IMG/VR virus record: IMGVR_UViG_3300042502_001136
Coordinates: 19,239 to 83,238 of that record
Source of the DNA: a virus
Length of the DNA: 64,000 bases
Reading direction: 5' to 3' (one strand)
The position numbers and the translations under genes are program-made. This document shows positions 8,263 to 64,000 of the stretch, one piece after another; within the stretch, counting starts at the first letter, position 1, and each line of letters opens with the position of its first letter. The notes under the pieces are model-generated. The model was given only the letters and a program-made list of their open reading frames with translations. It did no database searches and was not told the origin of the DNA.

Positions 8263-9303
8263 TTATTCAACAAGACTATTTTCTCTAATAAACTTTTCAT
8301 AACCATCATCAGAAATAATACCTTTTAAAGTTCTAGCAACATTATCAATAACTTCTTCAAGAGCACTATCTGATATATCAGTATTATGATTCAAAAATAC
8401 ATCAACTTTTTTAGGGTTACAAAGATATGTTAAATTTACAGTACTAAGTATAACAGTATCCGTTATTGGAAAGATAACAACTTTATCTCTAAGGTAAGCA
8501 ATACGACTATTATCTTTATTACCTGATAAATTAGAATGTTTAATAGACGTTTTAAATTCTTCATCTACAATTCTTACTTCTGCATCTAAAGTGTTAGCTA
8601 ATTCATAAACATTATAAGTTTCTTGTACTTCTTCTACTGTTATGTCCGTTTCCCCAATAGAGAAAGTTGTTGTTGAGTTTGTGTAACTTGCAATAACAAT
8701 TTTATTATTAACTTTATCATATGTTACTTCAAAACCAATAGGAAGATTTCGTTCAATAAGACTTATAATAAGATTATTATAAATAAAAGCTTTTTTATAA
8801 ACACTAACATTATCAGTAGGAAAATACTCATCAGGAAGTGTAGCAGTGTCTACTAAAGTAATAGTATCATCATCTACTTCTAGTATAATAAGTATATCAC
8901 TTATATCATCCAAACCACTATCTTCTATTGGGGGAAGGTATGTAAAATACTTTACTTTCTCGACAGTTTCCACTGTTTGACAATTACAACAAACAGAGGC
9001 TTCTGCACTAATATAATATAAATGATTAAAAGGAAGCTGAATAACAGCTTCCTTTTCATTTAATTGTAGTACAGGAACTTCTATTGTTTTTACTAAACTA
9101 TTAACATCTAAGATACGTTTGATAATATCGTAAGCCCCTTGTCTTTTTTCATTAGATAAAGGACTAAGACGTTGTTTAATAAACTTTAAGATTTCTTTAT
9201 TAATAAATATATCTTTTTCTTGTGGTAAAAAGTTATTACTCCAATTACTACTAACTTCTTGTAACAGTAAGTCTATATTTACGTGTAATTCCTGTGTAGT
9301 CAT
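8263..9303 (-). CDS. crAss-like ring/neck protein
   Basis: MT..ELH....L.LQ......FLPQEKD.FIN N-terminus and TYL..P.KV C-terminus characteristic of crAss ring proteins. Confidence 0.65.
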   Translation of the reverse strand: MTTQELHVNIDLLLQEVSSNWSNNFLPQEKDIFINKEILKFIKQRLSPLSNEKRQGAYDIIKRILDVNSLVKTIEVPVLQLNEKEAVIQLPFNHLYYISAEASVCCNCQTVETVEKVKYFTYLPPIEDSGLDDISDILIILEVDDDTITLVDTATLPDEYFPTDNVSVYKKAFIYNNLIISLIERNLPIGFEVTYDKVNNKIVIASYTNSTTTFSIGETDITVEEVQETYNVYELANTLDAEVRIVDEEFKTSIKHSNLSGNKDNSRIAYLRDKVVIFPITDTVILSTVNLTYLCNPKKVDVFLNHNTDISDSALEEVIDNVARTLKGIISDDGYEKFIRENSLVE

Positions 9304-10552: not shown

Positions 10553-12064
10553 TTAGATGTTACAATATAAAGAGAAACAATGAGTATTTCTACGGATAGC
10601 TACTCCACAAGTTTTAAGGTAGTGAATAGCAGTTTTATCTTGTGATGTAGATAATTGAATATCCATTACATTTCCTTTGTAAGAACCATAATCAACACCA
10701 CTTAATAAAGTCATACCTTGTTCAATACCTCTAATTAAAGAACGACCTTTTTGAGTAACAAGTTTAACATTGTTTTCTCCATCATATGTAGACATATCTA
10801 CAAAGTGCATTTCGTGAGAAGTCATAGGTTTACCTGAAATAGGGTGTCTAGGAGCATTTTCAGCAGTACCACCAAAATCTAAATAAGGAAGGTGTACTAC
10901 ATTAATAACATGACCATCAACGTGTCTAAATCCAGTAAAGAATGCACCATATACTAGATTACGTGGTCCACCTGTAATAGTACTATTTAATGCACCATCA
11001 TATGCAGACCAACCACTCATTTCATTCATAATAGCACTAGAAAAATCTTCTTTACCACCCATACCGGTAAATAAAGTAATATTCATGTTTTCAGTATCAG
11101 TAGCACCATAAGTTACTTCAGATACAACATTTTTAATTTTTCTAGCAGTAAGAATACCAAAAGTATCTCTATTAGGAATTTGTTCTTTAATACCTGCACC
11201 AAAAGGAATAGGAAGTTGAGTATCAGGGTCTATATTCATAATAGTTCCATTCTCATCTCTATTGTATTTAGATTCCCATAAAGATTCTTCTACAGCTTCC
11301 TTAAACTGCATCTCATGTTGCCACTCCTCAAATGGTAAGTAGTAATTAGACATACCTCCTGCACCTTTAGGGAAATGAAAAGTCATCATACGTTGACTAA
11401 CATTACCACCTACTTCATAAGATTTTCTAAGAATACCAATTTGATTCTTAAGTTTTCCGGGAAATTGTTTATTACTTTCATTACCAACAGAATAACTTTC
11501 AGAAACGTTAGCTCCGGCAGACATTGCCCACATTGTATTTGGTGCTAATTCAGAAAGACTAACAAAAGCAGTATTACTTGTTCTGATAATATCTAATTGA
11601 TAACGGTATCCATTAGCTACTTTTTCAGGTTTAGACATAATACGACATTGTGTACCATTAGGAGAAGTAACATTATGTTGATACTTTAACCATCTTGTTT
11701 TAAAAGTAACAATAACAGCTGTTCCACCAAGACCCGGTTTATCACCAGTAACATATTCAGTAGAAGCAACAGCATCTGTACGTCTTAATCTACCAAATAC
11801 CGGCCAATCATATTCAACATCTTGTATTTCTACATATTTAGTTCCACCTTTTTGTCCTTCTGTAAGGAACAACAATGGGAACTTCTTACTCTCTTTACCC
11901 ATTAAATGTGTAATAACAGGATTAAGAGTATCAGGGTTTGTCATACGGGCTTTAGTTAAGGATAAGTTATTTGTATAACCTTCATCTCCAAAACTTTCGT
12001 GTTGCACAACTCTATAAGTTTGATTACCTTGAAGTGCAAATGTACTATTAGGGGTACTAATCAT
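10553..12064 (-). CDS. Major capsid protein (crAss-type HK97 fold)
   Basis: 503 aa; downstream of portal and scaffold; EYDWPV, LKNQIGILRKS, G.GIKEQIP, LFTGMGG, G..F.GF.HVDGH motifs of crAss MCPs; biased codon use. Confidence 0.9.
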   Translation of the reverse strand: MISTPNSTFALQGNQTYRVVQHESFGDEGYTNNLSLTKARMTNPDTLNPVITHLMGKESKKFPLLFLTEGQKGGTKYVEIQDVEYDWPVFGRLRRTDAVASTEYVTGDKPGLGGTAVIVTFKTRWLKYQHNVTSPNGTQCRIMSKPEKVANGYRYQLDIIRTSNTAFVSLSELAPNTMWAMSAGANVSESYSVGNESNKQFPGKLKNQIGILRKSYEVGGNVSQRMMTFHFPKGAGGMSNYYLPFEEWQHEMQFKEAVEESLWESKYNRDENGTIMNIDPDTQLPIPFGAGIKEQIPNRDTFGILTARKIKNVVSEVTYGATDTENMNITLFTGMGGKEDFSSAIMNEMSGWSAYDGALNSTITGGPRNLVYGAFFTGFRHVDGHVINVVHLPYLDFGGTAENAPRHPISGKPMTSHEMHFVDMSTYDGENNVKLVTQKGRSLIRGIEQGMTLLSGVDYGSYKGNVMDIQLSTSQDKTAIHYLKTCGVAIRRNTHCFSLYCNI

Positions 12065-12110: not shown

Positions 12111-13418
12111 TTAGCCTAAGAGTCTTTCTAGTGATAAATTATCATCAGCTTGTTGTGCAGTTCTTGGTACACCAGTATCTGTTATAACTTTAGCTTTTTG
12201 TTGTTTTAATCTATCTTTAAGACTTGAGACTTTTTGTTCTTTAGCAATAACTTCTGCAAGTTTGCTAATATCGTATTTTTTAAAACGTAAAAAAGAAACC
12301 ATTAATTGGAAGTTAATATCTTCTTTGGCTTCATCTAACATTTCAGCACTATTTCCTTCTGCATCTACCGGTTTAGATAGGTAAGTAAGAAAAGCATCTT
12401 TATCTTTAATAGGAATATTAATATTTCCTAATTTTCCTTCTTTTACAGTTTCAGAAACTTTATTCCAATATTGTTCTACTTGTTGTCTTTCAAGAGCAAC
12501 CTGTTGTTTAATTTGATTATCTCTTTCAGCAATATCTTGATGTTGTTTTTGGTTTAAATAGGCAACAGCAGTAGCTAATTCAGCATCTACAATTTCTTGT
12601 CCACCTTTTTTAAGTCCTTCTATAATATTAGTAGGATTTGCAATACCTTGTTTTTTATAGTAACGAGATAATAAATCTTCTTTAGAATTATTATCAAGAG
12701 CAGTTAGATTAATTTTCTTATAATCAACTATATCTTGAACAAATGTAGAAGGGTCATCACCTAATAACAAGTGTTGATAGAATTGTTTCATTCTATAATC
12801 ACTGTCTAAAAATTCTTTAATACTATTAGCTTTACCGAGTTTAACAGCTTCTTCTACTACGGTAATCATTCCTTCTATTGTATCATCTACTTGTAGATGA
12901 GATAAATCAAGACCGAATTGAGTATTTAAAGCATTTTTAGTTTCTTCTACTAAAGGTAAATCTACTTGAGCAGGTGTAACTACTTCTCCTTTTGCATTAA
13001 CTAAATCTCCTTTATCATTTAAAGGAAGATTATCATTTTCAATATATTCTTTTAATTGAGCAGCAGTAAAGATAATTTCATTCTTATCATTTAATAAATT
13101 ACCACTTTTATCAATATTACTAGCTTTAAATACATCAAGTATTCCAGCTTTAAGTTCTTTTTCTTCTGCAGATAAAGCTTCATCAGCTTTAATTAAAGAA
13201 GGTAAAGTACTTTCAAAAGATTCTACTGCCGGTTCCCCACTAGAAGAAGGTGTTTGTGTTGTTGGTACAACAGGTACAACAGGTGCTTCAGGAGCAGGTG
13301 TTTGTGCAGCGGGTTGTGCAGGTGGAGTAACTTGTTGTACTCCATCAATAATATTGTCAAGGGTTACTAATGGTTCATCTACAGCAGGTGCTGTATTACC
13401 TTGTGCTTGTCCTTCCAT
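12111..13418 (-). CDS. Putative capsid scaffolding protein
   Basis: Between portal and MCP; P/A/Q-rich acidic N-terminus and coiled coil. Confidence 0.65.
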   Translation of the reverse strand: MEGQAQGNTAPAVDEPLVTLDNIIDGVQQVTPPAQPAAQTPAPEAPVVPVVPTTQTPSSSGEPAVESFESTLPSLIKADEALSAEEKELKAGILDVFKASNIDKSGNLLNDKNEIIFTAAQLKEYIENDNLPLNDKGDLVNAKGEVVTPAQVDLPLVEETKNALNTQFGLDLSHLQVDDTIEGMITVVEEAVKLGKANSIKEFLDSDYRMKQFYQHLLLGDDPSTFVQDIVDYKKINLTALDNNSKEDLLSRYYKKQGIANPTNIIEGLKKGGQEIVDAELATAVAYLNQKQHQDIAERDNQIKQQVALERQQVEQYWNKVSETVKEGKLGNINIPIKDKDAFLTYLSKPVDAEGNSAEMLDEAKEDINFQLMVSFLRFKKYDISKLAEVIAKEQKVSSLKDRLKQQKAKVITDTGVPRTAQQADDNLSLERLLG

Positions 13419-13429: not shown

Positions 13430-15742
13430 TTAATTAGTTTTTGCTTTTTTATTATTTTTATCGATATTAAGTTTTTTATCTTTCAATTCTAAATCTTTAT
13501 TCTCTTTTTGTATTTTATGGTCAGCTAATCTACGTTCAACTTCATTACTAGGTCTTTCTTCATTTCTACTGTTAGCTTCAGAACGAATACTAGCACTATC
13601 AACTGCTTTAGCGTATTCACTATCAATTTTATAATATTCTATTTCTCTATTTTGTGCATCATTAGCAGCAATAGAATCTTGTAATGCTTGTTGAGCATCT
13701 TCTGCTTGTTTTTGCATTAACATAGCTTGGTCGTTTTTCAACTTTTCCATCTTCTCTAAAACCTTATCTAATTTGGCTACATTATTAGTACTATATAGTC
13801 CACTTAAACTTTGATAAGGAGCATTATTTTGAATAAGATTTAAAGCTTGTCCTCTAATAGCAGTAACAGCTTCAGTATTTAATGCGGCATCTTTAACAAA
13901 AATACCAAAACTACTTTCACTTCTACTTGCTGCTTCATCAGCATTAATATTAAGAAAAGCAAGAGAACCATCAGTTCTAATATATCTTTTCTTTTTACCA
14001 TTAATCCATGCTACTTTACTATAATCTAATAAACCTGCATAATCTTTTTCAATTAATTTATCAAATTGTCTTGTAAGTTCAGCAGTAATAATAGCACTAC
14101 GAACAATAGCTTGTTCTGTAACAGCTTTACCTGCATTTTGTCCAACATCAGAATAACGTTGAGCGTTCATTCCAATCTCTTCCCAATACTCTGATTTAAT
14201 GAACTTCATTACCTCAACAGTATTACTAATATAATTACCTAAACCCATATCAACGGATTTAATCATTTGAGCAGCAAAAGATGCATTAGGAGCAGTTTCA
14301 TCTACCCATAATATAGAAGTAGCATCAGCATGATACATAGTACTTTTAGTATTCATACCTGCTTTTTTATTAATTAAACCATATGGCATAATTAATAGTT
14401 TATCTTTATTTTTATTAATAAGTTTTTCAGTTTGATAATGTAATACATTAACTAATACTTGATAAGGTAAACCTTGTTTAATAATAGATTGTAATTCACC
14501 AGTAAAACTTCTTTCTATAATACCATTATAAGAAAGTTTTTGTTCTCCATTACTATTTAAATCAGCTCTATTAACTTCAAGAGGTCCGCAATCAAGATAA
14601 AATCCTAGAGCTCTATAACCTTGCATTATTTGAGATTCATAATCCCATATAATATTAATATCTCCTTGTGCTTTATTAAGTTTATAAGTTTCATCTACTT
14701 CCATTTCTCTTTCTTGTCCAATTTCATCAATGTAAGTAAGAACACCAAATTTTCTCCAAGTTCTATATTGAACATGAAACACTTCAATACCACTAGAATT
14801 AGTTAAACCAAAAGCATCAGTATAATTAGCAGAAGCATAGTTAGCAGGTAATGTGATAATACCATTTCTTCCTGTAGCTTGAACATCAACAAAGTTCATT
14901 TCAAAACCTTTATTTATTCCTTGTTCTAAAGCTTCCATAAGTTCTTCTCCTACTCTACCTCTAAAAAAATCAACTACTTTAAATACAGGAACTATGTTAC
15001 GTCTAACAGCAAAACTATAATCTTCAATAAATCTACTATGTTTTTCATTAGGAACAAATAATTCATGTGCAGGAACAGCTTCCCACATAACATCATCATG
15101 ATTAACAGCTTTATATGTAAAAGCTCTACCGGTTACAACCCAATCCCAATATAAATCAATATATTTATTATCAAGGTCACAATTCCATCTAATATAATCA
15201 ATTGCATCTTGTCCACTAATAACTCTAGTAGTAGTATACTTTTCTTTAAATCCTGCAACATATTCTTCTAGTGGGGGAAGTTCTTGTACTTGTTGTCCAA
15301 CTTTCATACCAAGTTGAGCTAATTCATTAGCAATATGCTGAGCATAATAACCTCTAACTAAAACAGCTAAACCTTCTTTATAACTATATTCTGCATCAGG
15401 ATTAAAATCAAATACTACAAATTCATGACTTCTTCTACCAAATTCTCCCATAAGAAGATTAGCAATACCTTTAAGTATATTATAGTTACGAAGTTTAGCA
15501 CCATAAGTAGGAATTTCTCCACCTTTACCTTCTATATTAAAAGGGTTTTGAACATATTTATATTCATTAGGATGAATAATACCTTCAACAGCAGCATAAA
15601 GATTTGCTATCTCGGTGGTTTGATTTGCCCATGTACATTGACTAATATAATAATCAATAGTTTCTTCTATATTATTTTTACCAGATTTTTCATCTCTAGC
15701 TATCTTTTCAGCATAAGATAATTTTTGTGGTGGATATATCAT
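13430..15742 (-). CDS. Portal protein (start probably 15742, MIYPPQK)
   Basis: PPQKLS...LRNYNILKGIANLLMGE...IGMNAQR..VG..AGKAVTEQAI; follows terminase. Confidence 0.88.
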   Translation of the reverse strand: MIYPPQKLSYAEKIARDEKSGKNNIEETIDYYISQCTWANQTTEIANLYAAVEGIIHPNEYKYVQNPFNIEGKGGEIPTYGAKLRNYNILKGIANLLMGEFGRRSHEFVVFDFNPDAEYSYKEGLAVLVRGYYAQHIANELAQLGMKVGQQVQELPPLEEYVAGFKEKYTTTRVISGQDAIDYIRWNCDLDNKYIDLYWDWVVTGRAFTYKAVNHDDVMWEAVPAHELFVPNEKHSRFIEDYSFAVRRNIVPVFKVVDFFRGRVGEELMEALEQGINKGFEMNFVDVQATGRNGIITLPANYASANYTDAFGLTNSSGIEVFHVQYRTWRKFGVLTYIDEIGQEREMEVDETYKLNKAQGDINIIWDYESQIMQGYRALGFYLDCGPLEVNRADLNSNGEQKLSYNGIIERSFTGELQSIIKQGLPYQVLVNVLHYQTEKLINKNKDKLLIMPYGLINKKAGMNTKSTMYHADATSILWVDETAPNASFAAQMIKSVDMGLGNYISNTVEVMKFIKSEYWEEIGMNAQRYSDVGQNAGKAVTEQAIVRSAIITAELTRQFDKLIEKDYAGLLDYSKVAWINGKKKRYIRTDGSLAFLNINADEAASRSESSFGIFVKDAALNTEAVTAIRGQALNLIQNNAPYQSLSGLYSTNNVAKLDKVLEKMEKLKNDQAMLMQKQAEDAQQALQDSIAANDAQNREIEYYKIDSEYAKAVDSASIRSEANSRNEERPSNEVERRLADHKIQKENKDLELKDKKLNIDKNNKKAKTN

Positions 15743-15746
15743 ATTA

Positions 15747-18029
15747 TTATGTATTAAAAGGGTCATTAAAATAAGATTCTTCTTCTCTATCAATAACAGC
15801 AGTACTAGGAGCAACTTGTTTAAATACTGTTTCTTTAATATCAAACATACCTACAATAGCACAAGATATTCTATCAAAATTACCTTTACCATTAAATTTA
15901 AGTAGTTCCCTTAGTAGTCCTATATCAAAAACATAATGCAAATTTAATAAAGTATTCCCATTACTGTCAATACCTCTTTTTGTTAGTAACCAATCTTTAA
16001 AGTATATAACACCGTTGGCTTTTCTCTGTGGATTTGTACCAATAGAAACTCCTCTTTTTCTACCTTTACCTCCAGCAGTTATATCTTTTTGAAATTGAAA
16101 AGTTGTTTCTTCTTTAAGAAGGTCTAATAATCCTTTACTTAATGCATTATTATATACATCTCCCCTATCATTTTCATAAAGTATTTTAGCATTAAAGTAT
16201 ATAGCAGCTTGAAACATTTGATTATCATAATCTTTAGTTTCTTCTGTTCTACCATGATACCATCCTATAATTCTATCTCCTTTAGAATGTGTAAAGTTAT
16301 TAGCGTGTTCATATATATAACAAGAACCAAGAGAGTCTGTTAATTTAAATTCACCTTTATCTTTAGAAATACCAAAAGGGTCATTCCAAATACTATATAA
16401 GTTATCAGGAATACTACCACTAGCATCACGATATGGCTGTTCTACTAATACAAAACAACCTGTTAAATCTTTATCTTCGTCTCTAAGAGGATAATTATTT
16501 AATTCAGGTTTAATAAATTGTTTTTGAAATGAATCAGCAGTAGCTTCATCAATAAATTTAATATTTCCTTTATCTCCTTGTACAAAATATCCTTTTCTAC
16601 CAATACCTTGTAAACTAGGTTCATGTAAACATCTTCTTAATTGTTCATTAATTTCTTTAGAAGGATAAATGTTATTAGCAGAACGACTAAATGCTTCAGA
16701 AGGTTTTCTAGGTTCTTCCATTTCATGAGCATTAAGTTTAGAAGGATTATGTTTAACAAGAGATTTTTCATAATCATCAAAAGCAAGACTACCTTGAATA
16801 TCACTATTACCGTGTTTATCAATAAGTCCCGGCTTATTCATAAAACTACCATGAAAATAACCACAACTAGTACCTTGCATATCTTCATCCCATACATTTT
16901 CAAAAGACATAAAATGTCTAGCAAAAGTTTCATAAAATAAATCTTCAAATCCTTGCCATTGATTATCTTCTCCACCACCAGTACCAAACACAATCATAAG
17001 ACCTGTAATAAAAGCACCATCAGAAAGTGTTTTAAGTGTAGCATCTAATACAGCAGAAAGATTAGGACATTTTCCTGATTCTTCTAAAAGAAGTAAATCG
17101 GCATCTTTACCTCTCATTCCACCTGGATTAGTTTTTAATACAGCAGTATATATATTAGAAAGAAAACCTCTTGCTACATCACTACCTCTAAACTTATATC
17201 CAATTTCAATATGTTCAAGGGTGTTATGAAGTCTACCTTTATTCCAATCAGTATGTTTACAAATAAAGTTAAGATAATTCATAACTTTATTCATAGTACC
17301 ATCATCAAATAAAGAACCTGCATCATAAGCACCAACAACAGATGTACTACGTCTATATAAATTTGCTCTATTTGCTACTAACCAACCATTTTTATAACTA
17401 TATCCTTTTCTACGTGCTTTACCTACTACAAGATGTTTACCAATTTGTCTACATAATTCAATAGCTTTAAAGAAGTAATAATCACCATCCCAAAAAGCAG
17501 GAAGACTAAATGTTTTTGTATGTCCACCTTTATGAGTACTATTAATAAGTTCACCACTTGGACCAACTAATGCACCTTTTTTAATTTCAAATTCTTTAGA
17601 ACGTTTAATTTCTGCATAGTTAAGATATCCGTAATGTTCTCCTGTAATATGAACATTCTGCATAGCATAACTACCGTCAGCAGATTTAATTAATTTTCCG
17701 GGAAGAGTCATACCTTCAATACATCTCTTTTCTTCTCTATCCCAAAAAGCATTATATTCTCTACTATCGAATTTAGGGTGAGCTTTAGTATACTTTCCTG
17801 TTTTAATAAATTCTTGTCCTACTTTACTAAATTCTGCTGTATTAACAAAAGCAATATCTTCTGCTGTAAACATAGTAAGTTTACTATCATCATTAGCAAG
17901 AGTGTGTAAAGGAACTTCTTTATAAGGAGTAGTATATAAACCAGATTTAGGGTCAAGTGTTAATCTTTGAATAACACTATCTCCTAAATTATTTACAACA
18001 TCAAAAGCAGTAGAATTAATCGTTCTCAT
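15747..18029 (-). CDS. terL: Terminase large subunit
   Basis: ITGEHYGYLNY, KARRKGYSY Walker A, LLLLEESGK Walker B, FGTGG, NDPF and GNFDR nuclease motifs. Confidence 0.93.
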   Translation of the reverse strand: MRTINSTAFDVVNNLGDSVIQRLTLDPKSGLYTTPYKEVPLHTLANDDSKLTMFTAEDIAFVNTAEFSKVGQEFIKTGKYTKAHPKFDSREYNAFWDREEKRCIEGMTLPGKLIKSADGSYAMQNVHITGEHYGYLNYAEIKRSKEFEIKKGALVGPSGELINSTHKGGHTKTFSLPAFWDGDYYFFKAIELCRQIGKHLVVGKARRKGYSYKNGWLVANRANLYRRSTSVVGAYDAGSLFDDGTMNKVMNYLNFICKHTDWNKGRLHNTLEHIEIGYKFRGSDVARGFLSNIYTAVLKTNPGGMRGKDADLLLLEESGKCPNLSAVLDATLKTLSDGAFITGLMIVFGTGGGEDNQWQGFEDLFYETFARHFMSFENVWDEDMQGTSCGYFHGSFMNKPGLIDKHGNSDIQGSLAFDDYEKSLVKHNPSKLNAHEMEEPRKPSEAFSRSANNIYPSKEINEQLRRCLHEPSLQGIGRKGYFVQGDKGNIKFIDEATADSFQKQFIKPELNNYPLRDEDKDLTGCFVLVEQPYRDASGSIPDNLYSIWNDPFGISKDKGEFKLTDSLGSCYIYEHANNFTHSKGDRIIGWYHGRTEETKDYDNQMFQAAIYFNAKILYENDRGDVYNNALSKGLLDLLKEETTFQFQKDITAGGKGRKRGVSIGTNPQRKANGVIYFKDWLLTKRGIDSNGNTLLNLHYVFDIGLLRELLKFNGKGNFDRISCAIVGMFDIKETVFKQVAPSTAVIDREEESYFNDPFNT

Positions 18030-21612: not shown

Positions 21613-21862
21613 TTTAAAGCGAAAATTCGTATAATATTTTTCATTCTTACAAAACCATCTTCTATTGGGGAAAAGCCGGTACGAGTGTTAAAAATGTTAA
21701 ATTATTAGTATATCAAATCCATATACAATATATTATATATATAGTAAATTATAATATATGTATTTTTGATAGAGGTAATATAGGTGGAACTATTTAATAC
21801 TTGTAAATGTGCAAGTATAGGGTTTCTTGTGGGTGGTTTTGACGAAAGTCTTGAGGGTAATC

Positions 21863-53947: not shown

Positions 53948-54523
53948 ATGCAAACAATTCAAACAATTTTAGTCATTTTATTAGTACTAGTAGCAATAAT
54001 ACTAGCATTAAAAATTAGAGAGGTTATAAAACTGAAAAAACTAGTAAAACAGAAAGACAAAGAATACAGTTTACTTAATAGTGAGTATCATGATACTAAA
54101 GACACTTTAGTAACTATTAGAAGAAATCATGTATCTCAATATGAAACTCTTCAAGATAGATATGAACAAGAAAAAGTTGATTTATTAAAAGCTAATATTA
54201 ATAAAACTATTTATTTAAAATATTTATTAATAGTTATTAATAAAGTATTTAATAATTTAGGTAAACATATTATGTATACTGATGAAACAGGTGTACCTAA
54301 AAATATTTGGCTTGTTTATAGTAAAGAGGCTAAAGCATATAAAGTACAAGCAGCTTTTGGAAAAGAAGATATTTCAAATATTCTTTCTTTTCATAATGAA
54401 AAAGAAGATATAAAAGCCTTAATAGAAAAAGGTATTATTGGAGAGTATGAAACAGAACAATTTGAGAAAACTCTCGATGTTACAGAATTTGATGTTCTTA
54501 GAGAATCAATTCTAAATAAATAA
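53948..54523 (+). CDS. Membrane-anchored coiled-coil protein
   Basis: N-terminal TM then coiled coil. Confidence 0.6.
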   Translation: MQTIQTILVILLVLVAIILALKIREVIKLKKLVKQKDKEYSLLNSEYHDTKDTLVTIRRNHVSQYETLQDRYEQEKVDLLKANINKTIYLKYLLIVINKVFNNLGKHIMYTDETGVPKNIWLVYSKEAKAYKVQAAFGKEDISNILSFHNEKEDIKALIEKGIIGEYETEQFEKTLDVTEFDVLRESILNK

Positions 54524-54532: not shown

Positions 54533-54958
54533 ATGGAGATAGCAATTAAACTCGCTGCCTTATTTACAATAATGCTTTTATTATTTAAAATGAAAGCATT
54601 ATTAGATAAGATAAAAGTACAAAATTCTTATATTAAAAGTCTTGAAAAAAGAGATAAGACAAAAATATTAGGAGAGCAAAAATATAAAGATAATCATGAA
54701 CTCGATGAAAGATTATATGCTTTTTGTGAAGGTAAATTTTATAAAGTCTTTAATGTAAACAGTAAAGGAGAAGCATATATTAGAAACAAAGATCTTAAAA
54801 CTGGTAAAAGAGAAAATAAAATTTGTGAATTATATTTAAAAGTAAAAGGTATTGATGCTTATGTAGATTTAGAAACTGTAAAGACATATATAATTAATAA
54901 TCTTTATACTAATAAATATAAAAGTTTTGAAGATATAAAAAAAGGGACTCTTAATTGA
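54533..54958 (+). CDS. Membrane-anchored hypothetical protein
   Basis: N-terminal hydrophobic helix. Confidence 0.55.
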   Translation: MEIAIKLAALFTIMLLLFKMKALLDKIKVQNSYIKSLEKRDKTKILGEQKYKDNHELDERLYAFCEGKFYKVFNVNSKGEAYIRNKDLKTGKRENKICELYLKVKGIDAYVDLETVKTYIINNLYTNKYKSFEDIKKGTLN

Positions 54959-55015: not shown

Positions 55016-58000
55016 TTATCGTTTATCATATGTTTGTGAAGCTGAATTATAAATACTATAAGCTTTAGATGTAAAAGGTAATAGTTTAGATGATGCTTTT
55101 ACCAATCTGCTATCCCCTGCATGAATACCTGCTTCAAATTCATCTTCTCCAATTAAAGCTTTACCACTAGCATAAAAGAAATCAGCAACTTCTTTAACAA
55201 TACTTACAGCCGGAATAATATCTCTTATTAAATTTCTAGCTTCCATAGGATTAACATATAACATTAAATCAGTTCTTAATCTAATTCCTTGATTAATTAA
55301 AACATTTAATACTTGCAATTTTTCTTCATCATCATCGTCATCTTTTAATCCTGCAACAACAAGTAATAATAAATTAAGATTAATAGCCATAGTAACTTCT
55401 GTTAAAACTTTTCTCATATTAGCAGCATCAACAGCTTTAATTTTATTATTTTCTACTAATCCTTCAAAGGTTCCACCTTTATAAGCACCGAATGTATATC
55501 TTCTTAATATTCCTTTCATAAATTCAAGTGCAAATTCTCCAACAGTAGTTCTTTTATAAACATCTCCAACTGAACGATATCTACCTTTTACTTCAACTCC
55601 TAAGATATCATCAAATCTCTCTTTTTCAACTCTTACTGCAATAGCATCTATCATCCAAGTTCTAAATTGTAATGCAAATCTACCTAATACAGAACGTTTA
55701 GCATTAATAGTTGAAGCAGGGTCATAATTACCATGATTACGTTTAATTATTTGATTTAATTTTAATCGTAATTTAATAATAACATCTTTAGGCTCTTCTC
55801 CAAATTCAGCAGTATTCCAATTAAAATCATTATCCATAGCATCCCAAACAGTAGTTTCTCCTTTTTCTGTTTGTACTTTAGTATCTTTAGCTAATGCTAT
55901 TAATAATGGAGCCTGATTAATATACTCTGTTCTCTTTTGCATATTATAAGGACTTAACCATCTAAAGCGTTTATTAAAACTATTAGGAGTAGATTCTGTA
56001 TAAAGTTCATTAGATGCATCTTTAAGTACATCCCATTTATTCATACCTGCTCTAATCTTATTAGCTACCTCTAAATCATATAATCCAGTTTCATGATTAA
56101 AACTAGCATTTCTACCAATACTATTCATTACTAATTTATAACCATAATTTAAAGATTCTTTAGTATAAACTTGTCCTCCTGCAGCTTCTATGTAATTAGC
56201 TATCCAACCAAATCCCATATTACTAAATCCACTTAATACATTCCAACCCATTAATTTTACTTGTAAATATTTAAGTAAATTATCACCTGCTTTAGAGTAT
56301 ATAAATGTTTTACCTAATTTAGCTAATTGGTCTTGTATTAATTCTGCTCCTTCTGTATATACTTCTACAGTAATTACATTATTAGCTAAATCTTCTTCTA
56401 GTTGTATTAAACTATTCTCTAATTCCTTCTTAGTAGCTTTTTCAGTAGGAGTTAATACTTTTCCACCTTTACCCTCTTCATCTCTAATATCATTATACAT
56501 ATTAGCTTTAATAAAGTTTTCAGTAGCTTGTTTAGTTTTAACAAAAGATTCAGCTGTTGGTTTCTTTTGAATTAATCCTAATCCTGCTGTAATAGGTGTA
56601 CCATCAGGTCTATAAAAAGACTCTTTATATGAATCCATTACAGTAGTAGCAATTTTAATACCGTCTTCTATTTGAGCTTTATGCTTATGTGCCATTACTA
56701 ATGCCGTATATACCTTAATTACTTTAGGTAAATCAAAAGATTTTTGTTGAGATATTTCATCAATAGCTTCTTCTTTAAATCTATATAATTCAACATTATT
56801 AGGCTCTCTTTTATTTTCAACAATAAATTCTACTGTTTTCTTTTCAACAATATCTTTAATAGCTTCATAGTTGTTTTTTATCATTGGTATTCTCATTTCC
56901 TGAACAGGTTTACCTGTATTAGGGTCAATAACACCACTACTATTATCAGAAAAAGAACTTTGCATTGATTTAATAAAAGCATCTTGAATAGGTTTAAATC
57001 CTAATTGAAAACCTTTTTCAGAATACATTTCATATAAACTCTTTTCAATAAAAGGAATACCACCATAAGCTAAAGCTTCTTGTTGACTATCAGGAACAAA
57101 TTTTTTCAAAGTACTAAAAGTATCATTAACAAATTCATAGAAAGCTAATAAAGTTTCATCACTTTTAATAATATCAAAATTACTATCAAAATAATCAGCA
57201 GTTACTGCTTCTCGTTTAGGTATTAATTCATAATATTTATGTGAATTAAAATATTTATAATCTTCTATACTTTTAGGTGCTCCTTTAAAAGCATAATGTT
57301 CTAATGAATAAGGACTATTAGCTTTTAACCAATTTTCATATTTTCTATTAGTTTCTTCAGTATTAGTAATATCAGCTTTAGATTTTAAGTTATAACTACT
57401 AACTAATATTTCTAAATATCCTTCTTTATGTTCATTATATGAATCAATTTTCTTTTGTTGATTTTTCATATATGAATTATAAGCATACTCACCTAATTCT
57501 TGTTTTAATGCTTCTCTAGCAGCAATAACTTCAGGAGTAATAACATTATTAGCAGGGAAAAGACTAGCAATATTAGTATTTAATCCTATGTTTCCAATAT
57601 GATTAAGATAAGCATTAAAATTACTAAATACATTATTAGCATTTATCCCACTAATGAGCATTGCTTTTCTTTCATAGAATTTTTTAGAATATTGATTAAC
57701 TAAATGTCCTGTCAATTTACCATTTTCAGTACGTTGTCTAAAAATATCAAATAATTCTTTATATCCTCTAGCTTTTAAATTAGCAAGAACTTTATCAGAT
57801 AATTCTTCAAAACCTTCTAATTGTTTATTAAAATCATCTTCAGCTTTAATATTAGCTGTTTGAACAGCAGCCCAAATACTAGTTAGAAGTTCATTATCAT
57901 AAGTACTAATATCTTTAAAACTATTTTGTAAAGAATTAATATCTTTAAATTCTGAAAATATTTCATCAATAGTAATATCTCTATTAATGTAAGTTTTAAC

Positions 58001-61000
58001 AAAATTTCTAAGGTATTCTTTTTCTACTAAAGATAGTTGGTCTGATAATGATTTAGCTTCTGATTCAATACCTGCATAAAGATTAGTTAATATCTTAGAT
58101 TTTTTAGCAACAGGACTAAATAGTAATTCAGTAGAATCTTTCCAAAAATTAGTAAGACTTCTTGCATATACTAAATCTTCTGAAGTTAAAGGTCTTTTTA
58201 ACATCTCTTCAACTGTCTGTAAATCTTGTTCAGCAAAATCAGCTAAATTATCTAAATATTTAACATCTCCTGCATTTTCTAATAGTTCTGCATCTTTATT
58301 ATATTGTTCTTGTAATACAGCTACTCTATTAAAATCTTCAATATCTCTAGCTTTTTTAATACTACTTTTTAACTTCTTAACTCTAATTTCTAATGCTTTA
58401 ATATAATTAGGAAAAGAATTAACACCTCCTTCAACTATTTCAGAAGTTAAACCAATATTTTCATCATAAGCAAAATCAGCAAATCTATTACTATCTAATA
58501 CTACTCTACCATCTATATTTCTTGCTACAACATTTACTATATTCTTGTTAATAAAATCTACAATTTCTTGTGCATTATCTTTTTGAATAGGAACATTGTT
58601 TTCATTTACTAGATTTAACTTCTTATTAAGATAGTCTTGTGTTCTAACATAAAGAGGAACACTAGGTACATAAAAAGCAGGATCTTTAGTAATATCATTT
58701 TCAAACAAGTTAAGAATTTCATGTAAAACAGCTTCTAAATTACTATCTTTTTTAACTCCTAATCTTTGTAATAAATCAGTAATAGCTTTAATAAAACGTT
58801 GCCAAAGAGTTTTAGCTTTTTCATTAGCAGGTTTATTTAAGTATTCTTGAAATAATTTATTATTAATAGATGCAGCAATAAATTCTTGTAAATTAATAAT
58901 AGGATAAAGAATATTACGGTCAAGTTCAGTAGTTAAACCTAATCCATGTTTAGAATTATATTTAACTCTATCAATAGCTTTTTGTCCATAAGTATTAATA
59001 AGATCATTCTCAACTGATTTTCTTAATGCTTCTAATTCTTTAACAAAAGTACTACTTCCTTTTTCTACTTCCATTGCAGTAATACCATGTATAATTTCTT
59101 CTATAACTACTAAATGTAAATCTTCTTCAGAAACAAAACTATTAGGATTAACTCTAATTTGAAAAGGTTCTGCAAACATATTACTTTTAAGTAATACTCC
59201 TCTAGCTTTTAAGTTAGTATCTACATAAAATGGTACAGCAGAAAGAAGTGGAGTAAGTCCTTTTATTTTATCAGCAAAATATTTAATAATAGGATTGTTA
59301 CTATTATTTCTAATTTGTCGCAAAATAAGTCTATATTTTTCTTCTACAGCTAAAGAATTATCATCTAAATAATATTTCTTAGTTAAATCAGCCATAGCAG
59401 TATTATATATTTTAGCTGAACTTAAATCAGAGACATTATTATCTAAAGATAAAAATTCATCAGTAGCAGTACCAGGTTGAGGAAGATTTTCAGTACTAAG
59501 TTCAGAAAGATTAGAAAATAAATCTAATTGTACTGAAGTAGTATTACTAACAGTAGGAGTACTATAATTAAGAGTATTAATACTATTTTTTGTAACAACA
59601 TATACATCTTTAATAGCTTGTTTAGCTTTATCTTCTTTTTCCTTACCTACATACTCTTGTCTTGGTTGCCACTTATCATCTTTTTTAACATTATAATTTT
59701 CAATATCTCTACTACCTATACCTGCAAAGTTTTTAGTTAATATAGGAGTTTCTGTTTTTTCAAAAACTTTATTATTAAATTTATACCATTGTTCAGTATT
59801 AATATCCCATACATAAACAGGTTTATTTAATTTAATTCCTAATTGAATTGCTGTATTAGTACCACCACTAACTGATTTATTATTACTATTTAATTTAGCA
59901 ATAGCATAAACAGCATCTGAATTATAAACTTGATAAAAGTTTCTTACTTGTAAATTACCTTCTAATGTATTAGGATATTTTTTTCCTAATAATCTTTCTA
60001 CTTCACTTCTAGCTTTATCCATTTGTTCTTTAGATAAAACTACAGCTGTAACTTTATTATTTCTTAATTGTTGAGATAAATTAGCATTACCTGCATCTTT
60101 ATAATGATTATGTTTAGTAAATCCAAGAGGTCTACCGATTATATCCCAAAAAGTATCTCCTCCATATGCTCCGCCTGAATGATTAGTAAAGTCTGATAAA
60201 CTTGTAGCTTGTTCTTGACTAGTAACAGGAGGATTAATAGATGTTATCTTAGGGATATATTCTTTTTTAATAACTTGTACCTCTTCTTCAACTTTATCAT
60301 TAAGTCTTTCAAATCCGCTATCAGCTTGATTAATATAAATAGTACTTTTACCTGCAAAAGGTAAAGTAATATCATATTCTTTCATACCTTTACTACCTAA
60401 TACATCTATTTCAATATATTCTTGAATATCAGGAATAAATTTAAATATTCTATATTTATTAGGCATAGCAGAAGGAAAAACAACAAAACTTCTAAATATC
60501 TTAGCCCTATCTTTAGCAACTAATTTATTATTAACAATCTCAAAGTTTTCTAATACTCTTTCATTATAAAATTCTTCTGGATTATGTTGAACATATTGAG
60601 TTGTAAAAGCTTCTTTAGCATTTTTACTAAATTCATCATTATCTAGTAAATTAGCAGTAGCTTCCATTTCTTTATAAAATCCTATTGTTTTAAGATAATC
60701 ATAAGGAATATATTTAATAAATTGAGCAGATTGTTGAACACCACCTGTAACTAACTGATATTGTATTAATTGTTCAGCTAATATACGAGTAGTTAAACGT
60801 TCTCCATTATAATCACCTAAATATATATCATTAACAAGCATATCAATTATACTATTAATAATAACTTCATCATTCATTTCAATAACACCTGCATTATAAT
60901 ATTTAATTTCAGTAGGTATTTTTCCTGTTCTAGTAGCAGTCATAGTACTTCTACCAATTTGAAGTTTTTCTAATAAAGGATTAGTATAAGGTTTTAATGC

Positions 61001-64000
61001 TCCGGTACGTTGACGTAAATCTAATATTATAGTACCAAGACTATCATGAGTTTCAGTATCATAAAGTAGTTTATATCTTGTATCATATATGTTGTTGTCT
61101 TTCCCCAATAGATGGTATGTGTTTGATACAAGAAATGATTTGAACTCATTAGTAGCTTTATTTAATAAATCAGCTTCTTCATTAACAGTACTAACATTAC
61201 CAAATCTAATATTAATTAAATTAGATAAAATATCTCTAATATTACCTTTATTATAAGGATAATGCTTATTCCATAATACATTATTAAATAGTACACCATA
61301 TACACCAGCAAAACCACTAATAGTAGTAGGTCTAATCCATGTATCTCCGTATCGAACAAACCCATCTTCTATTGGGGAAGAGTATTCATAATCTCCAATT
61401 AGCTTACTTACACCTCTAATTTGTTTATCGTATTCAGGTAGTTTAATAATTTGGTCAGCTTTTTGTAAACTATAAAATAAGTTTTTACCAACTCCTTTAC
61501 TATCAGAATTTAAAGTACTTTGTATAACTTTAATTACTTCTCCTTTAGTTTTAAAATCATTAAAAAAGTATAATACTGCATTTTGATATTGAGTATCAGC
61601 TTCTCCATTAAGAGCTTCTATCATTTCATTTAATGTAGTTGTTTTTAATAAAGTTCTATATTCAGGATTATAAGACGGAACATCAGTTAATCCTTTATTA
61701 AAAGCTAATACACTTGGTTGATTTATAAAAGGAACAATAATATCTTCAGTAAAACCCATTAAAGCCATAACTCTAATAACATCAAATGTATCAGAATTAA
61801 TATTAAGTTTACCTAATAATTGTTCATTCTCATCATCTAATGCAGCAGATTGAAAAGCTGATATAACATCTGATTTATATTTACCTTTTTCAACTGAATG
61901 AGGATTATTTAAATCGGAATTATTAAATCCTGCTATATTAACACTATAATCAACTTCTCTTTTTAATTTCTTATCATATCTATAGAAATTCATATTAACA
62001 GGAATATGTTGAATAAGAGCATTAAAAACGTTATCAAGTGAAAATAAACCAACAGCAGACTTACCAGCTCTAGCACGTAAATATTTAGAACTTTGGTAAG
62101 TATTACTAAAAGAAGTAAAATCAGCAGAACTCTTAGCTTGTGGTATTTTACTAACTAATTCTTTTAAATTACCAAGACCAAGAGGATTAGCTCTAGCTGT
62201 TTGTACTTCTTTAGCAGGATTATCTAATACAGCAAAGTGTACATCTAATATCTTATTCTGTAATAAATCATCTTCAATGCCAACATATTTATATATTGCA
62301 CCTTGTTTAAGTTTTCTTATTTGACTTGATACAATAGTGATTCTATTAGCAATATCTATTTTAAGATTACGATGCTTTTCTATTTTCATAGCTTTCTTTA
62401 AATCTCTACTATGATTTCTTAAAGTTTCAAGACTTTTGAGTACATTTTGTCTTCTTTTTATATGTATATCACTTAAGATTTCAAAACTACCACTAGTTTT
62501 ATCAAAATAAGTATTATACATATGTGTATAAAGTTTATCAACATCAAAGTCAGAACCCATTTGTCTAACAAAATCAAGAGGAGCAACAATAATATCTCCA
62601 TAAACGTCAGGAAGAAATCCTACTACTTTAAGTAAAGACATACTATTTAAACCTTGTGTAGGAATACGATATCCAAAAGATTCAAGAGCTTTTTCAGGAA
62701 TTTTAGTTAAATCTAACATCCCATCTACCATAAAATCTTTAACAGATAAAGCATTTCCATCATTATCCCAAAATTTAAAAGGAACAAGAATTTCAGCATA
62801 AGTAATAGTACCGTCTACTTCTTTAGTAGCCGTTAATTCCCCATTCCAACCAGGAACTCTAATAATAGCATTTTCATCAATACTATCTAATGTTTGTATA
62901 TTAGTATTAGTTTTATCTAATCTAATTCCTGCTTCAGATGCTAATATAAAAGATTTACCTTTAAATTTTCTTTTTCTTACTTGATTATCTACAATAGAAT
63001 TTAATAAAGCACTAATTTTATTTTCAGAGTTATTTAACCATAAAGGAGTAGCAAAAGCAGTACCTAATTCATTTAATTCTAAACTATTAATATCATTAAT
63101 ATTATAATTTCGAGCTAATCCTTCTTTAATAAGAATTTCTCTTAATTTATTCATATTATTAATAGTACCAGTAATAGGATTAAATTCTAAATCATTAATA
63201 AGTTTATTATACTTATTCTCGAATAACTTACCATAATAACCATTATAAGAGGTTAATAATGTTCTACCATCTACTTTTTCTCCTGTTTCAGGATGAACAA
63301 AACCTTTAATATCTAATAAGTTAGTAAATAACATTTTACTTTGTTGAGTTCCATCATTTACATGATTTTTCTCTTCATCATAAGGATTTACCTGTTGAAT
63401 ACCGTGTCCTTCTCTAGGAATATTATCTAATAAACCGTCTTTCCAATTCTTAGGAATTATAACATCTTTACCATCTTTAGTAAATAATTTAGGAATATTT
63501 CTAGGTTTACCAATTTTAACAGCAGAAGCAAAAGCTACTCTATCAATAGATTCAGTTTCCATCAATACTCTTATTTTATCTAAAGGAGTATTAACTGTTA
63601 ATTGTTTAATTAATGGATAAGAAGAAGATTTAATATGAACTCTATAATCAATACCATTACGAAGAAAGTTATTTCCATATAAAGGTTTCATAGGTTGTAA
63701 AATTATACCTAAATCTTCTTTATCTACTAATCCTGTTTTATCATAAGTAGATAAAATACTATTCATTTTAGCTTTTGTAATTTCTCCTCTTTTAAATAAT
63801 ATTTTAAGGTGTTCAGCTAATGTAGTAAATTCTTGCCCATCAGCAGCATCAATATCTTTATAAAGAGAAGGTATATCTGAATTAACTCCAAATAAACTAT
63901 TTAAATAAGATAAAGCAGTACTAGTCATTTTAACATCATCAATAACTAATACATTCATAGTTTCATCTTTATCTGATATAATAGGACTCTTACCACCATT
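55016..64000 (-). CDS. Giant virion-packaged RNA polymerase polyprotein (crAss-type), 5' end outside window
   Basis: YRIPTQGLNSM and GSDFDVDKLY (DxDxD at 62551-62537); frame stays open from 63958 to window edge (NGGKSPIISDKDETM). Confidence 0.9.
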   Translation of the reverse strand, partial: NGGKSPIISDKDETMNVLVIDDVKMTSTALSYLNSLFGVNSDIPSLYKDIDAADGQEFTTLAEHLKILFKRGEITKAKMNSILSTYDKTGLVDKEDLGIILQPMKPLYGNNFLRNGIDYRVHIKSSSYPLIKQLTVNTPLDKIRVLMETESIDRVAFASAVKIGKPRNIPKLFTKDGKDVIIPKNWKDGLLDNIPREGHGIQQVNPYDEEKNHVNDGTQQSKMLFTNLLDIKGFVHPETGEKVDGRTLLTSYNGYYGKLFENKYNKLINDLEFNPITGTINNMNKLREILIKEGLARNYNINDINSLELNELGTAFATPLWLNNSENKISALLNSIVDNQVRKRKFKGKSFILASEAGIRLDKTNTNIQTLDSIDENAIIRVPGWNGELTATKEVDGTITYAEILVPFKFWDNDGNALSVKDFMVDGMLDLTKIPEKALESFGYRIPTQGLNSMSLLKVVGFLPDVYGDIIVAPLDFVRQMGSDFDVDKLYTHMYNTYFDKTSGSFEILSDIHIKRRQNVLKSLETLRNHSRDLKKAMKIEKHRNLKIDIANRITIVSSQIRKLKQGAIYKYVGIEDDLLQNKILDVHFAVLDNPAKEVQTARANPLGLGNLKELVSKIPQAKSSADFTSFSNTYQSSKYLRARAGKSAVGLFSLDNVFNALIQHIPVNMNFYRYDKKLKREVDYSVNIAGFNNSDLNNPHSVEKGKYKSDVISAFQSAALDDENEQLLGKLNINSDTFDVIRVMALMGFTEDIIVPFINQPSVLAFNKGLTDVPSYNPEYRTLLKTTTLNEMIEALNGEADTQYQNAVLYFFNDFKTKGEVIKVIQSTLNSDSKGVGKNLFYSLQKADQIIKLPEYDKQIRGVSKLIGDYEYSSPIEDGFVRYGDTWIRPTTISGFAGVYGVLFNNVLWNKHYPYNKGNIRDILSNLINIRFGNVSTVNEEADLLNKATNEFKSFLVSNTYHLLGKDNNIYDTRYKLLYDTETHDSLGTIILDLRQRTGALKPYTNPLLEKLQIGRSTMTATRTGKIPTEIKYYNAGVIEMNDEVIINSIIDMLVNDIYLGDYNGERLTTRILAEQLIQYQLVTGGVQQSAQFIKYIPYDYLKTIGFYKEMEATANLLDNDEFSKNAKEAFTTQYVQHNPEEFYNERVLENFEIVNNKLVAKDRAKIFRSFVVFPSAMPNKYRIFKFIPDIQEYIEIDVLGSKGMKEYDITLPFAGKSTIYINQADSGFERLNDKVEEEVQVIKKEYIPKITSINPPVTSQEQATSLSDFTNHSGGAYGGDTFWDIIGRPLGFTKHNHYKDAGNANLSQQLRNNKVTAVVLSKEQMDKARSEVERLLGKKYPNTLEGNLQVRNFYQVYNSDAVYAIAKLNSNNKSVSGGTNTAIQLGIKLNKPVYVWDINTEQWYKFNNKVFEKTETPILTKNFAGIGSRDIENYNVKKDDKWQPRQEYVGKEKEDKAKQAIKDVYVVTKNSINTLNYSTPTVSNTTSVQLDLFSNLSELSTENLPQPGTATDEFLSLDNNVSDLSSAKIYNTAMADLTKKYYLDDNSLAVEEKYRLILRQIRNNSNNPIIKYFADKIKGLTPLLSAVPFYVDTNLKARGVLLKSNMFAEPFQIRVNPNSFVSEEDLHLVVIEEIIHGITAMEVEKGSSTFVKELEALRKSVENDLINTYGQKAIDRVKYNSKHGLGLTTELDRNILYPIINLQEFIAASINNKLFQEYLNKPANEKAKTLWQRFIKAITDLLQRLGVKKDSNLEAVLHEILNLFENDITKDPAFYVPSVPLYVRTQDYLNKKLNLVNENNVPIQKDNAQEIVDFINKNIVNVVARNIDGRVVLDSNRFADFAYDENIGLTSEIVEGGVNSFPNYIKALEIRVKKLKSSIKKARDIEDFNRVAVLQEQYNKDAELLENAGDVKYLDNLADFAEQDLQTVEEMLKRPLTSEDLVYARSLTNFWKDSTELLFSPVAKKSKILTNLYAGIESEAKSLSDQLSLVEKEYLRNFVKTYINRDITIDEIFSEFKDINSLQNSFKDISTYDNELLTSIWAAVQTANIKAEDDFNKQLEGFEELSDKVLANLKARGYKELFDIFRQRTENGKLTGHLVNQYSKKFYERKAMLISGINANNVFSNFNAYLNHIGNIGLNTNIASLFPANNVITPEVIAAREALKQELGEYAYNSYMKNQQKKIDSYNEHKEGYLEILVSSYNLKSKADITNTEETNRKYENWLKANSPYSLEHYAFKGAPKSIEDYKYFNSHKYYELIPKREAVTADYFDSNFDIIKSDETLLAFYEFVNDTFSTLKKFVPDSQQEALAYGGIPFIEKSLYEMYSEKGFQLGFKPIQDAFIKSMQSSFSDNSSGVIDPNTGKPVQEMRIPMIKNNYEAIKDIVEKKTVEFIVENKREPNNVELYRFKEEAIDEISQQKSFDLPKVIKVYTALVMAHKHKAQIEDGIKIATTVMDSYKESFYRPDGTPITAGLGLIQKKPTAESFVKTKQATENFIKANMYNDIRDEEGKGGKVLTPTEKATKKELENSLIQLEEDLANNVITVEVYTEGAELIQDQLAKLGKTFIYSKAGDNLLKYLQVKLMGWNVLSGFSNMGFGWIANYIEAAGGQVYTKESLNYGYKLVMNSIGRNASFNHETGLYDLEVANKIRAGMNKWDVLKDASNELYTESTPNSFNKRFRWLSPYNMQKRTEYINQAPLLIALAKDTKVQTEKGETTVWDAMDNDFNWNTAEFGEEPKDVIIKLRLKLNQIIKRNHGNYDPASTINAKRSVLGRFALQFRTWMIDAIAVRVEKERFDDILGVEVKGRYRSVGDVYKRTTVGEFALEFMKGILRRYTFGAYKGGTFEGLVENNKIKAVDAANMRKVLTEVTMAINLNLLLLVVAGLKDDDDDEEKLQVLNVLINQGIRLRTDLMLYVNPMEARNLIRDIIPAVSIVKEVADFFYASGKALIGEDEFEAGIHAGDSRLVKASSKLLPFTSKAYSIYNSASQTYDKR

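Follow-up and report, generated by a model that had tools for sequence, protein, structure and literature searches.

The stretch of DNA analyzed here, hereafter the window, comprises the 64,000 nucleotides at bases 19239-83238 of the 83,238-bp contig IMGVR_UViG_3300042502_001136, the genome of a lake-water phage. It carries dispersed copies of an asymmetric word of about 28 nt, tTTCCCCAATAGAaG followed by a G/T-rich, C-free tail. The first 127 bases of the contig are the same as its last 127 bases, and the genome thus corresponds to a circle of 83,111 bp, with 27% G+C and tightly packed genes. We propose that this word is very probably a selected DNA signal, independent of genes and specific to one strand at each site.

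Once aligned, the copies display a T-rich lead, CCCC, two bases that are mostly AA, TAGA, aG and a loosely kept tail. The copies reported by the first-pass annotation of this DNA were all found at the positions that it gave. They have CCCCAATAGA in common, for which 14 matches with at most one mismatch were counted against 2.1 expected. With a position weight matrix (PWM) built from the copies and a threshold of 12 bits, 23 sites were detected over the 83-kb genome, whereas Markov shuffles yielded 0.3. One more degenerate copy lies at genome position 18566 and is kept in G001, a relative from IMG/VR, which brings the total to 12 copies on the plus strand and 12 on the minus strand. The copies in the window are given below; bits are those of the first genome PWM (12-bit threshold), the retrained PWM being used where stated.

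3946-3973, plus strand: weak, borderline copy (TTTTCCCCATTAGGG...), 11.4 bits, at least 12 with the retrained PWM
8648-8675, plus strand: copy 8652, antisense in the open reading frame (ORF) 8263-9303 (minus), where it encodes SIGE; 34.8 bits; orthologous site in G001
8910-8937, minus strand: copy 8924, sense in the ORF 8263-9303 (minus), where it encodes PPIE; 38.2 bits
13231-13258, plus strand: copy 13235 (core CCCCACTAGA), in the ORF 12111-13418 (minus); 37.0 bits; orthologous in G001
15253-15280, minus strand: copy 15267 (CCCCACTAGA), in the portal gene 13430-15844 (minus), where it encodes LPPLEE; 26.7 bits
19045-19072, plus strand: weak copy 19049 (CCCCTCTAGG), in the ORF 18513-19445 (minus); 15.2 bits; the G001 orthologue is strong
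21237-21264, plus strand: copy 21241, antisense in the ORF 20969-21535 (minus) (SIGE); 26.6 bits
21647-21674, minus strand: copy 21661, intergenic, at a divergent strand switch, its partner 420 bp off; 36.0 bits
28225-28252, plus strand: copy 28229, intergenic, in a 1-kb gap (27354-28374); 33.5 bits
28312-28339, minus strand: copy 28326, intergenic, about 40 bp ahead of the ATG at 28374; 32.3 bits
34070-34097, minus strand: copy 34084, antisense at the 3' end of the PolA gene 31885-34212 (plus) (SIGE); 29.9 bits
34283-34310, plus strand: copy 34287 (CCCCAATAAA), near the start of the ORF 34213-34719 (plus); 29.8 bits; pair with tails outward
40093-40120, minus strand: unpaired copy 40107 (CCCCACTAGT), in the ORF 39567-40280 (plus); 20.5 bits; specific to this genome
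43153-43180, plus strand: copy 43157 (CCCCATATAGA), in the ligase gene 42550-43842 (plus); 22.9 bits
45799-45826, minus strand: unpaired copy 45813, intergenic, 80 bp ahead of the ATG at 45894; 38.7 bits; specific to this genome (gap in G001)
53155-53182, minus strand: copy 53169 (CCCCTCTAGT), antisense in the DUF932 gene 52365-53399 (plus); 23.4 bits
53490-53517, plus strand: copy 53494, sense in the ORF 53406-53942 (plus) (SPIE); 34.2 bits; pair with tails outward
61099-61126, plus strand: copy 61103, in a giant ORF (minus) of 5,313 amino acids that contains a virion RNA polymerase; 31.5 bits
61354-61381, minus strand: copy 61368, sense in the same giant ORF (SPIE); 39.1 bits; pair of 265 bp with tails inward

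The copies contain no dyad symmetry, both profile and consensus being asymmetric (pyrimidine run, TAGA, G/T tail). The tail holds 34-36% G and 1-3% C, against a background of 12-14% C, the tail of the aligned copies having 36% G, 40% T and 3% C on a 14% C background; it is a composition rule on one strand and not a fixed sequence. Such a one-strand composition is more typical of single-strand reading than of base readout in the duplex. An exact 14-mer scan of IMG/VR returned single chance matches only, and a search of the literature on the word, on crAss nicks and on crAss promoters found no description of it.

We then considered each strand separately. The minus-strand copies of the window are separated by gaps of 5.7-8.2 kb, with a coefficient of variation (CV) of 0.12, and no random placement out of 200,000 reached this evenness (P<1e-5); the plus-strand copies have a CV of 0.36 (P=0.002-0.005). 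Over the whole circle, the minus-strand gaps range from 5.7 to 9.6 kb (CV 0.17), with again none of 200,000 random placements as even (P<5e-6), or P=4e-4 if the degenerate copy at genome 18566 is left out, and the plus-strand series has a CV of 0.30 (P=3e-5). The weak copy at 3950 fills a 9.6-kb gap of the plus-strand series. The density is roughly one copy every 7 kb on each strand. The first-pass annotation had described clusters recurring about every 6-8 kb and disturbed by extra weaker copies at 13.2, 19.0 and 43.2 kb. A regular series is real, but it is essentially that of the minus strand, and the three weaker copies do exist but are members of the plus-strand series instead of stray extras. 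When all the clusters of the window are taken together, these three included, the gaps differ from a Poisson distribution (CV 0.43, P=0.003).

The two series are also placed relative to each other. The six close pairs recognized at first pass are real and all inverted: the tails point inward in 8652/8924 (272 bp apart), 21241/21661, 28229/28326 and 61103/61368, and outward in 34084/34287 and 53169/53494. The whole genome contains eight pairs 97-420 bp apart, 8/8 of them inverted, six with tails inward and two with tails outward, so that the order within pairs is not fixed; the remaining partners lie 1.2-3 kb apart or are missing. We compared this arrangement with a null in which the series of one strand was rotated randomly against that of the other, the spacing of each strand being kept. 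Eight pairs within 500 bp were observed against 1.9 expected (P=0.003; 0.35% of the rotations reach at least eight).

An even spacing that ignores genes, together with close pairs that are always inverted and typically 265-430 bp long, a loopable length, could reflect architectural sites. A protein would bind the duplex word, inverted half-sites 100-400 bp apart would form a unit, and bridging between units would create some 12 loops, each of about 7 kb, which would serve to condense, package or eject the genome. On the other hand, the free order within pairs (six tails-in against two tails-out), the several sites that are unpaired or whose partner is 1.2-3 kb away, and a tail that is compositional and not sequence-specific do not agree well with a duplex-binding unit. 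The layout is not of the Tus-Ter type either, because the orientations alternate round the whole circle and do not form two opposed groups flanking a terminus.

The genes among which the copies are dispersed lie on two arms, one on the minus strand with the structural genes and the other on the plus strand with replication genes (the phage also encodes a DEDD exonuclease):

10553-12064, minus strand: major capsid
13430-15844, minus strand: portal
15747-18029, minus strand: terminase
30201-31556, plus strand: superfamily 1B (SF1B) helicase, RecD/Dda-type
31885-34212, plus strand: PolA
36671-37699, plus strand: DnaB-like helicase
37855-38784, plus strand: RecT-like protein
40342-41475, plus strand: primase
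42550-43842, plus strand: ligase

The giant ORF occupies 55016-64000 of the minus strand and continues across the contig junction to genome position 7087. It is 25% identical to crAssphage gp44, annotated as 'RNAP catalytic subunit fused to unknown RNAP subunit' (RNAP, RNA polymerase), and may represent a virion RNA polymerase fused with further virion proteins. At 5,313 amino acids, it is unusually long even among crAss phages.

Eighteen of the 24 sites are located within ORFs, including those of the portal, the polymerase, the ligase and the giant virion RNA polymerase. Over five genomes, 43 copies are in sense and 53 in antisense orientation with respect to transcription, and 35 lie between called ORFs, an intergenic enrichment of about 2.7-fold. 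Antisense copies encode S-I-G-E in 8/10 cases and sense copies (S/P)-P-I-E in 7/8. The same DNA word is therefore translated into two different peptides according to the strand, which indicates that selection acts on the DNA itself and that the frame in use is the least harmful one. The parity between sense and antisense copies disfavors promoters, terminators, stoperator-like sites and any function at the RNA level. The initial claim that the spacing is indifferent to gene boundaries is borne out by these data, the copies being mostly inside ORFs, unbiased in orientation and regular on each strand. It had been further suggested that a physical role (looping, condensation or translocation checkpoints) fits better than gene regulation. 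We agree that the signal acts at the DNA level and that classical gene regulation is unlikely; the three physical roles are candidates. The per-strand series, the inverted pairs of free order and the tail composition are no less compatible with a process that reads one strand (nicking, priming or loading) than with an architectural protein bound to the duplex.

Alternatively, the copies could be promoters, pause sites or terminators for the injected virion RNA polymerase, similar to the co-evolving promoters of T7-type polymerases. The latter are also asymmetric, about 20 nt long, present in 10-20 copies per genome and co-varying with the phage's own reader. The word studied here is likewise long and asymmetric, and its core shifts in concert between sister phages (see below). 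Moreover, all the minus-strand copies of the plus arm (6/6) lie 50-240 bp upstream of a gene start, and the intergenic enrichment goes in the same direction. However, T7 promoters are intergenic and co-oriented with transcription, whereas here the copies are mostly intragenic, sense and antisense ones are balanced overall (43 vs 53), and both orientations occur inside single essential genes. The early transcripts of phage phi14:2 have no common upstream motif (bioRxiv 10.1101/2020.03.07.982082). The contigs from lake metatranscriptomes inform on expressed regions and not on ends at the sites; they leave 21.1-21.8 kb, a segment with two strong copies, uncovered, although this is weak evidence. 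Altogether, we regard signals for the virion RNA polymerase as very improbable.

The dispersed repeats of mycobacteriophages resemble the present arrangement by the many copies of one word over a genome, in their case tens of protein-binding sites. The stoperators of Cluster A are oriented with transcription and serve the repressor of a temperate phage, and the Cluster O repeats are 17-bp palindromes. In contrast, the word described here is asymmetric, balanced between strands and independent of transcription.

Comparison with relatives from IMG/VR provided further support for selection on the word. G001 is complete, collinear and 81 kb long; its capsid protein is 87% identical to that of the lake phage and its DNA 66-78% identical across aligned segments (about 73%). 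It contains 23 sites, 20 of which are at orthologous positions, including the portal copy 15267. In the 18 orthologous pairs that could be aligned, each position of TTCCCC and TAGA shows 83-100% identity, whereas the fifth core base differs in 18/18 pairs, being A in the lake phage and C in G001. Such a concerted change over independent sites indicates that a common reader has changed its specificity, and implies that the core of the motif co-evolves with this putative reader. A co-evolving DNA-binding protein of the architectural type would fit this concerted change as well.

The positions of the sites also change between the two genomes in a manner that respects the spacing. G001 retains the pair corresponding to genome 62.1/62.4 kb, that is, the copy in the ligase gene and a minus-strand partner about 300 bp away. 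In the lake phage this minus-strand member (genome about 62.1 kb, window about 42.9 kb) is degenerate and lost as a site. The lake phage has minus-strand copies at genome 59.3 and 65.1 kb (window 40107 and 45813), 3 kb on either side, and G001 has none there.

Two more distant relatives, G002 (incomplete; capsid 58% identical) and G003 (71%), have no equivalent word, either at the orthologous codons or by enrichment. At most alignable sites, the portal copy included, the same codons are present without the word in both, which indicates that the sites were written into existing sequence and not inserted. Only two sites fall at G002/G003 alignment gaps, genome 11643 and 27890, the latter being copy 8652 of the window.

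These data bear directly on the possibility that the copies are remnants or ends of mobile elements, in the manner of the inverted terminal repeats of miniature inverted-repeat transposable elements, or recombination junctions between modules. An inverted arrangement with 100-420 bp between partners does resemble terminal inverted repeats. In addition, one metatranscriptome contig (run X14) matches the genome only from 28327 rightwards and carries more than 255 unrelated bases before this point; a co-occurring strain thus diverges inside the core of the minus-strand copy 28326, a single observation. Nevertheless, the interiors of the pairs are unrelated, ordinary coding sequence, and the presence of the same codons without the word in G002 and G003 largely refutes this explanation. 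Alignment breaks between the lake phage and G001 occur within 260 bp of 7/24 sites, against about 4.5 expected, which is not significant. A scan of 185,579 species genomes with the 16-mer found at least 120 single-copy stretches in scattered taxa; among the matches listed, no genome had multiple copies, bacterial ones included, and none of the stretches was related to the phage or formed a repeated element. A mobile origin thus appears highly implausible.

The capsid protein of the lake phage is 34-37% identical to those of crAss phages of the Intestiviridae and 22% identical to that of phi14:2, and on this basis it is a crAss-like phage. The public runs that contain it are all lake-water metagenomes and metatranscriptomes, and a megablast of 15 kb of the genome against GenBank phages gave no match. 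We searched for the word in gut phages, namely Carjivirus communis (the prototypic crAssphage, BK010471.1), crAss002 and cr271_1 (records NC_055828.1 and NC_055887.1). CCCCNTAGA occurs 17, 9 and 13 times in these three genomes, respectively, with 0-1 occurrence of the reversed control. It occurs once in phi14:2 and once in Flavobacterium phage Fpv3, and crAss001 has no copy; we regard these three phages as lacking the word family. Genome-specific PWMs detected 32 sites in Carjivirus communis, 31 in crAss002 and 21 in cr271_1. The consensus words of the gut phages are CCCCGT[AG]GAGGATGGA, CCCCC[AG]TAGAGGAG and CTCCCCCGTAGAAGA, versus tTTCCCCAATAGAaG here.

The gut phages and the lake phage share the same core, CCCC-N-TAGA followed by a G-rich, C-poor segment. 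They differ by the free middle base or bases (G in the gut, AA in the lake) and by the tail (GGATGGA-like in the gut, G/T-rich in the lake). In each of the three gut phages, at least one strand is far more even than random (P<=1e-4), and the copies of such strands follow each other every 5.4-6.9 kb or so. Copies are found on both strands and inside genes. The other strand is less even (P=0.005 in crAssphage and crAss002) or not even (P=0.56 in cr271_1). The word and a per-strand scale of about 5.5-7 kb are common to phages whose capsids are only about 35% identical, and the motif of the window is the lake clade's version of a cis-acting strand signal shared with the gut crAss phages (Intestiviridae).

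Tight inverted pairing, on the other hand, is significant in the lake clade (P=0.003), weak in crAssphage and not significant in crAss002 and cr271_1. As the strand arrays of the two last phages are even on at least one strand but not significantly paired, the conserved property is the per-strand spacing and not the pair. This argues against architectural sites, for which the pair is the unit, and we consider them an unlikely explanation, although the likeliest of the rival ones.

The tightest inverted pairs of crAssphage (BK010471.1) are both intergenic. One, at 28077-28183, precedes by about 540 bp the gene gp43, annotated as repL-like, and the tight 97-bp pair 28229/28326 of the window is similar to it; the other, at 22901-22938, separates the Gam-like gp31 from gp32, with the DUF932 gene gp33 a short distance downstream.

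Among the known systems, one parallel is provided by the nick-associated motifs of T5, phiKMV-like phages, tf and Rembedalsseter (WACTRTGAC), which are found with localized single-strand interruptions (PMC11780129). Like the present word, they are short and asymmetric, number about 10-13 copies per genome, and are conserved within groups beyond the overall similarity. However, they occupy one strand only and lie towards one genome end (PMC11780129), whereas 12 + 12 copies are evenly spread here.

Chi sequences provide another comparison. They are 5-8 nt long, are read by a host enzyme and are abundant in the host chromosome. Both Chi and the present word are G-rich, specific to strand and orientation, and dispersed irrespective of genes. 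By analogy, a processive helicase-nuclease, either the host RecBCD/AddAB or a phage enzyme, could read one strand and switch from degradation to recombination, and copies every 7 kb or so would bound the loss from DNA ends. Supporting this idea, even spacing minimizes the largest unprotected gap, the copies are strand-specific in both orientations and gene-independent, the tail is G-rich as in many Chi sequences, and the phage possesses a RecD/Dda-type SF1B helicase, an exonuclease and a RecT-like protein. Still, at least 14 nt are conserved here in addition to the tail and change between sister phages, the matches listed in the 16-mer scan contain no host counterpart, and the tight pairing is not required by the model. 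A Chi-like control is accordingly quite improbable in our opinion.

The per-strand series, their even spacing, the inverted co-location, the tail rule on one strand and the co-evolving reader together point to a function that covers the whole genome and treats each strand separately. We favor the explanation that the copies are evenly spaced, strand-specific entry sites for replication or recombination, which as a whole seems to us quite possible. The signal consists of a pyrimidine run ending in CCCC, one or two free bases, TAGA and a G-rich, C-poor tail, and selection has very probably written it into pre-existing codons and spacers at one copy per 7 kb or so and per strand. Its reader would be a putative phage-encoded protein of the DNA replication or recombination apparatus, and at each site it would act on a single strand, either through a site-specific nick or through the loading of a primer or helicase. 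About 12 evenly distributed entry points per strand could result, an inverted pair being a two-directional entry point. The even spacing would then represent a balance between coverage of the whole genome and the cost of a 28-nt word in coding sequence. The set of encoded proteins (primase, DnaB-like helicase, SF1B helicase, PolA, RecT-like protein, ligase and DEDD exonuclease) is consistent with a role in replication. We put forward the nicking or priming mechanism itself tentatively.

Several observations weigh against these entry sites. The known nick motifs of phages are on one strand and not evenly spread (PMC11780129). An unwinding element would be AT-rich, which is not clearly the case for the interiors of the pairs (GC 0.251 vs 0.270, P=0.08). 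Known primases read 3-nt sites and not 14-28 nt, and phi14:2 and crAss001 have primases yet lack the word. Finally, neither a correlation of gene content nor a lead concerning RepL named a protein as the reader. In the correlation, only the SF1B Dda/RecD-like helicase and a DUF932 protein were common to the lake phage and the motif-bearing gut phages but not detected in phi14:2 and G002. As both are widespread in unrelated phages and G002 is incomplete, they were dropped as candidates. RepL was rejected as well: the syntenic ORFs 53948-54523 and 54533-54958 have no similarity to RepL or to any family, and RepL was not detectable in crAss002 or cr271_1.

One could extend the entry-site reading to the crAss phages of the Intestiviridae type and of the freshwater clade, in which a putative dedicated phage enzyme would nick or prime each strand at a co-evolving word of 14-28 nt every 5-7 kb. 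This generalization is rather doubtful at present. If true, each phage genome would possess about a dozen evenly spaced, two-directional entry points for replication or recombination, and we know of no description of such a multi-origin layout among tailed phages.

CrAss-like phages, which rank with the most abundant viruses in the human gut, also occur commonly in the environment; to our knowledge, the replication, packaging and ejection of their DNA are almost unstudied. The pattern points to an uncharacterized DNA-handling step in this abundant group, with a signal kept from a lake phage to the prototypic crAssphage and so strong that it imposes amino acids on the portal, the polymerase and the virion RNA polymerase. 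New here are its presence in a freshwater clade, the tight inverted pairs and the clean specificity switch between sister genomes. The sites tell where nicks, primers, bound proteins or DNA contacts should be looked for, and the A-to-C switch between the sister phages is a natural specificity swap for identifying the reader. Since the word constrains coding sequence, it also matters for the annotation, engineering and recoding of these phages.

Some other features of the window deserve mention. A second word, TGACCCTG, was enriched in an 8-mer count, but no enrichment was found in the window for the extended form, ATGACCCTGA, and the word was not retained. A 15-nt word like TTTTAAAGGCTCGTA is present at 21680-21694, 28182-28196, 45769-45783 and 45859-45873, in both orientations. 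It lies within 50 bp of copies 21661, 28229 and 45813, that is, of 3/4 intergenic copies; as it is not enriched window-wide (6 vs 4.7 expected), only this co-location is notable.

A GIY-YIG homing-endonuclease-like ORF at 49566-50426 adjoins the deoxynucleoside monophosphate (dNMP) kinase gene 50428-51231. As G001 lacks a counterpart, this ORF is probably a recent mobile insertion. At 22146-23708, a 1.5-kb island of higher GC, flanked by C-less and G-less tracts, contains the ORF 22318-22938, which is kept in G001 and G003. In three or four runs, lake metatranscriptome contigs cover the island with a word depth of about 100, compared with a metatranscriptome depth of 10-15 for the capsid gene. 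Lastly, the mostly non-coding region 26975-28100 is covered by contigs of RNA runs from three studies, at a depth of about 20, which end 130-210 bp short of the tight motif pair 28229/28326. A non-coding RNA might be produced here in abundance, comparable to the early intergenic transcripts of phi14:2.

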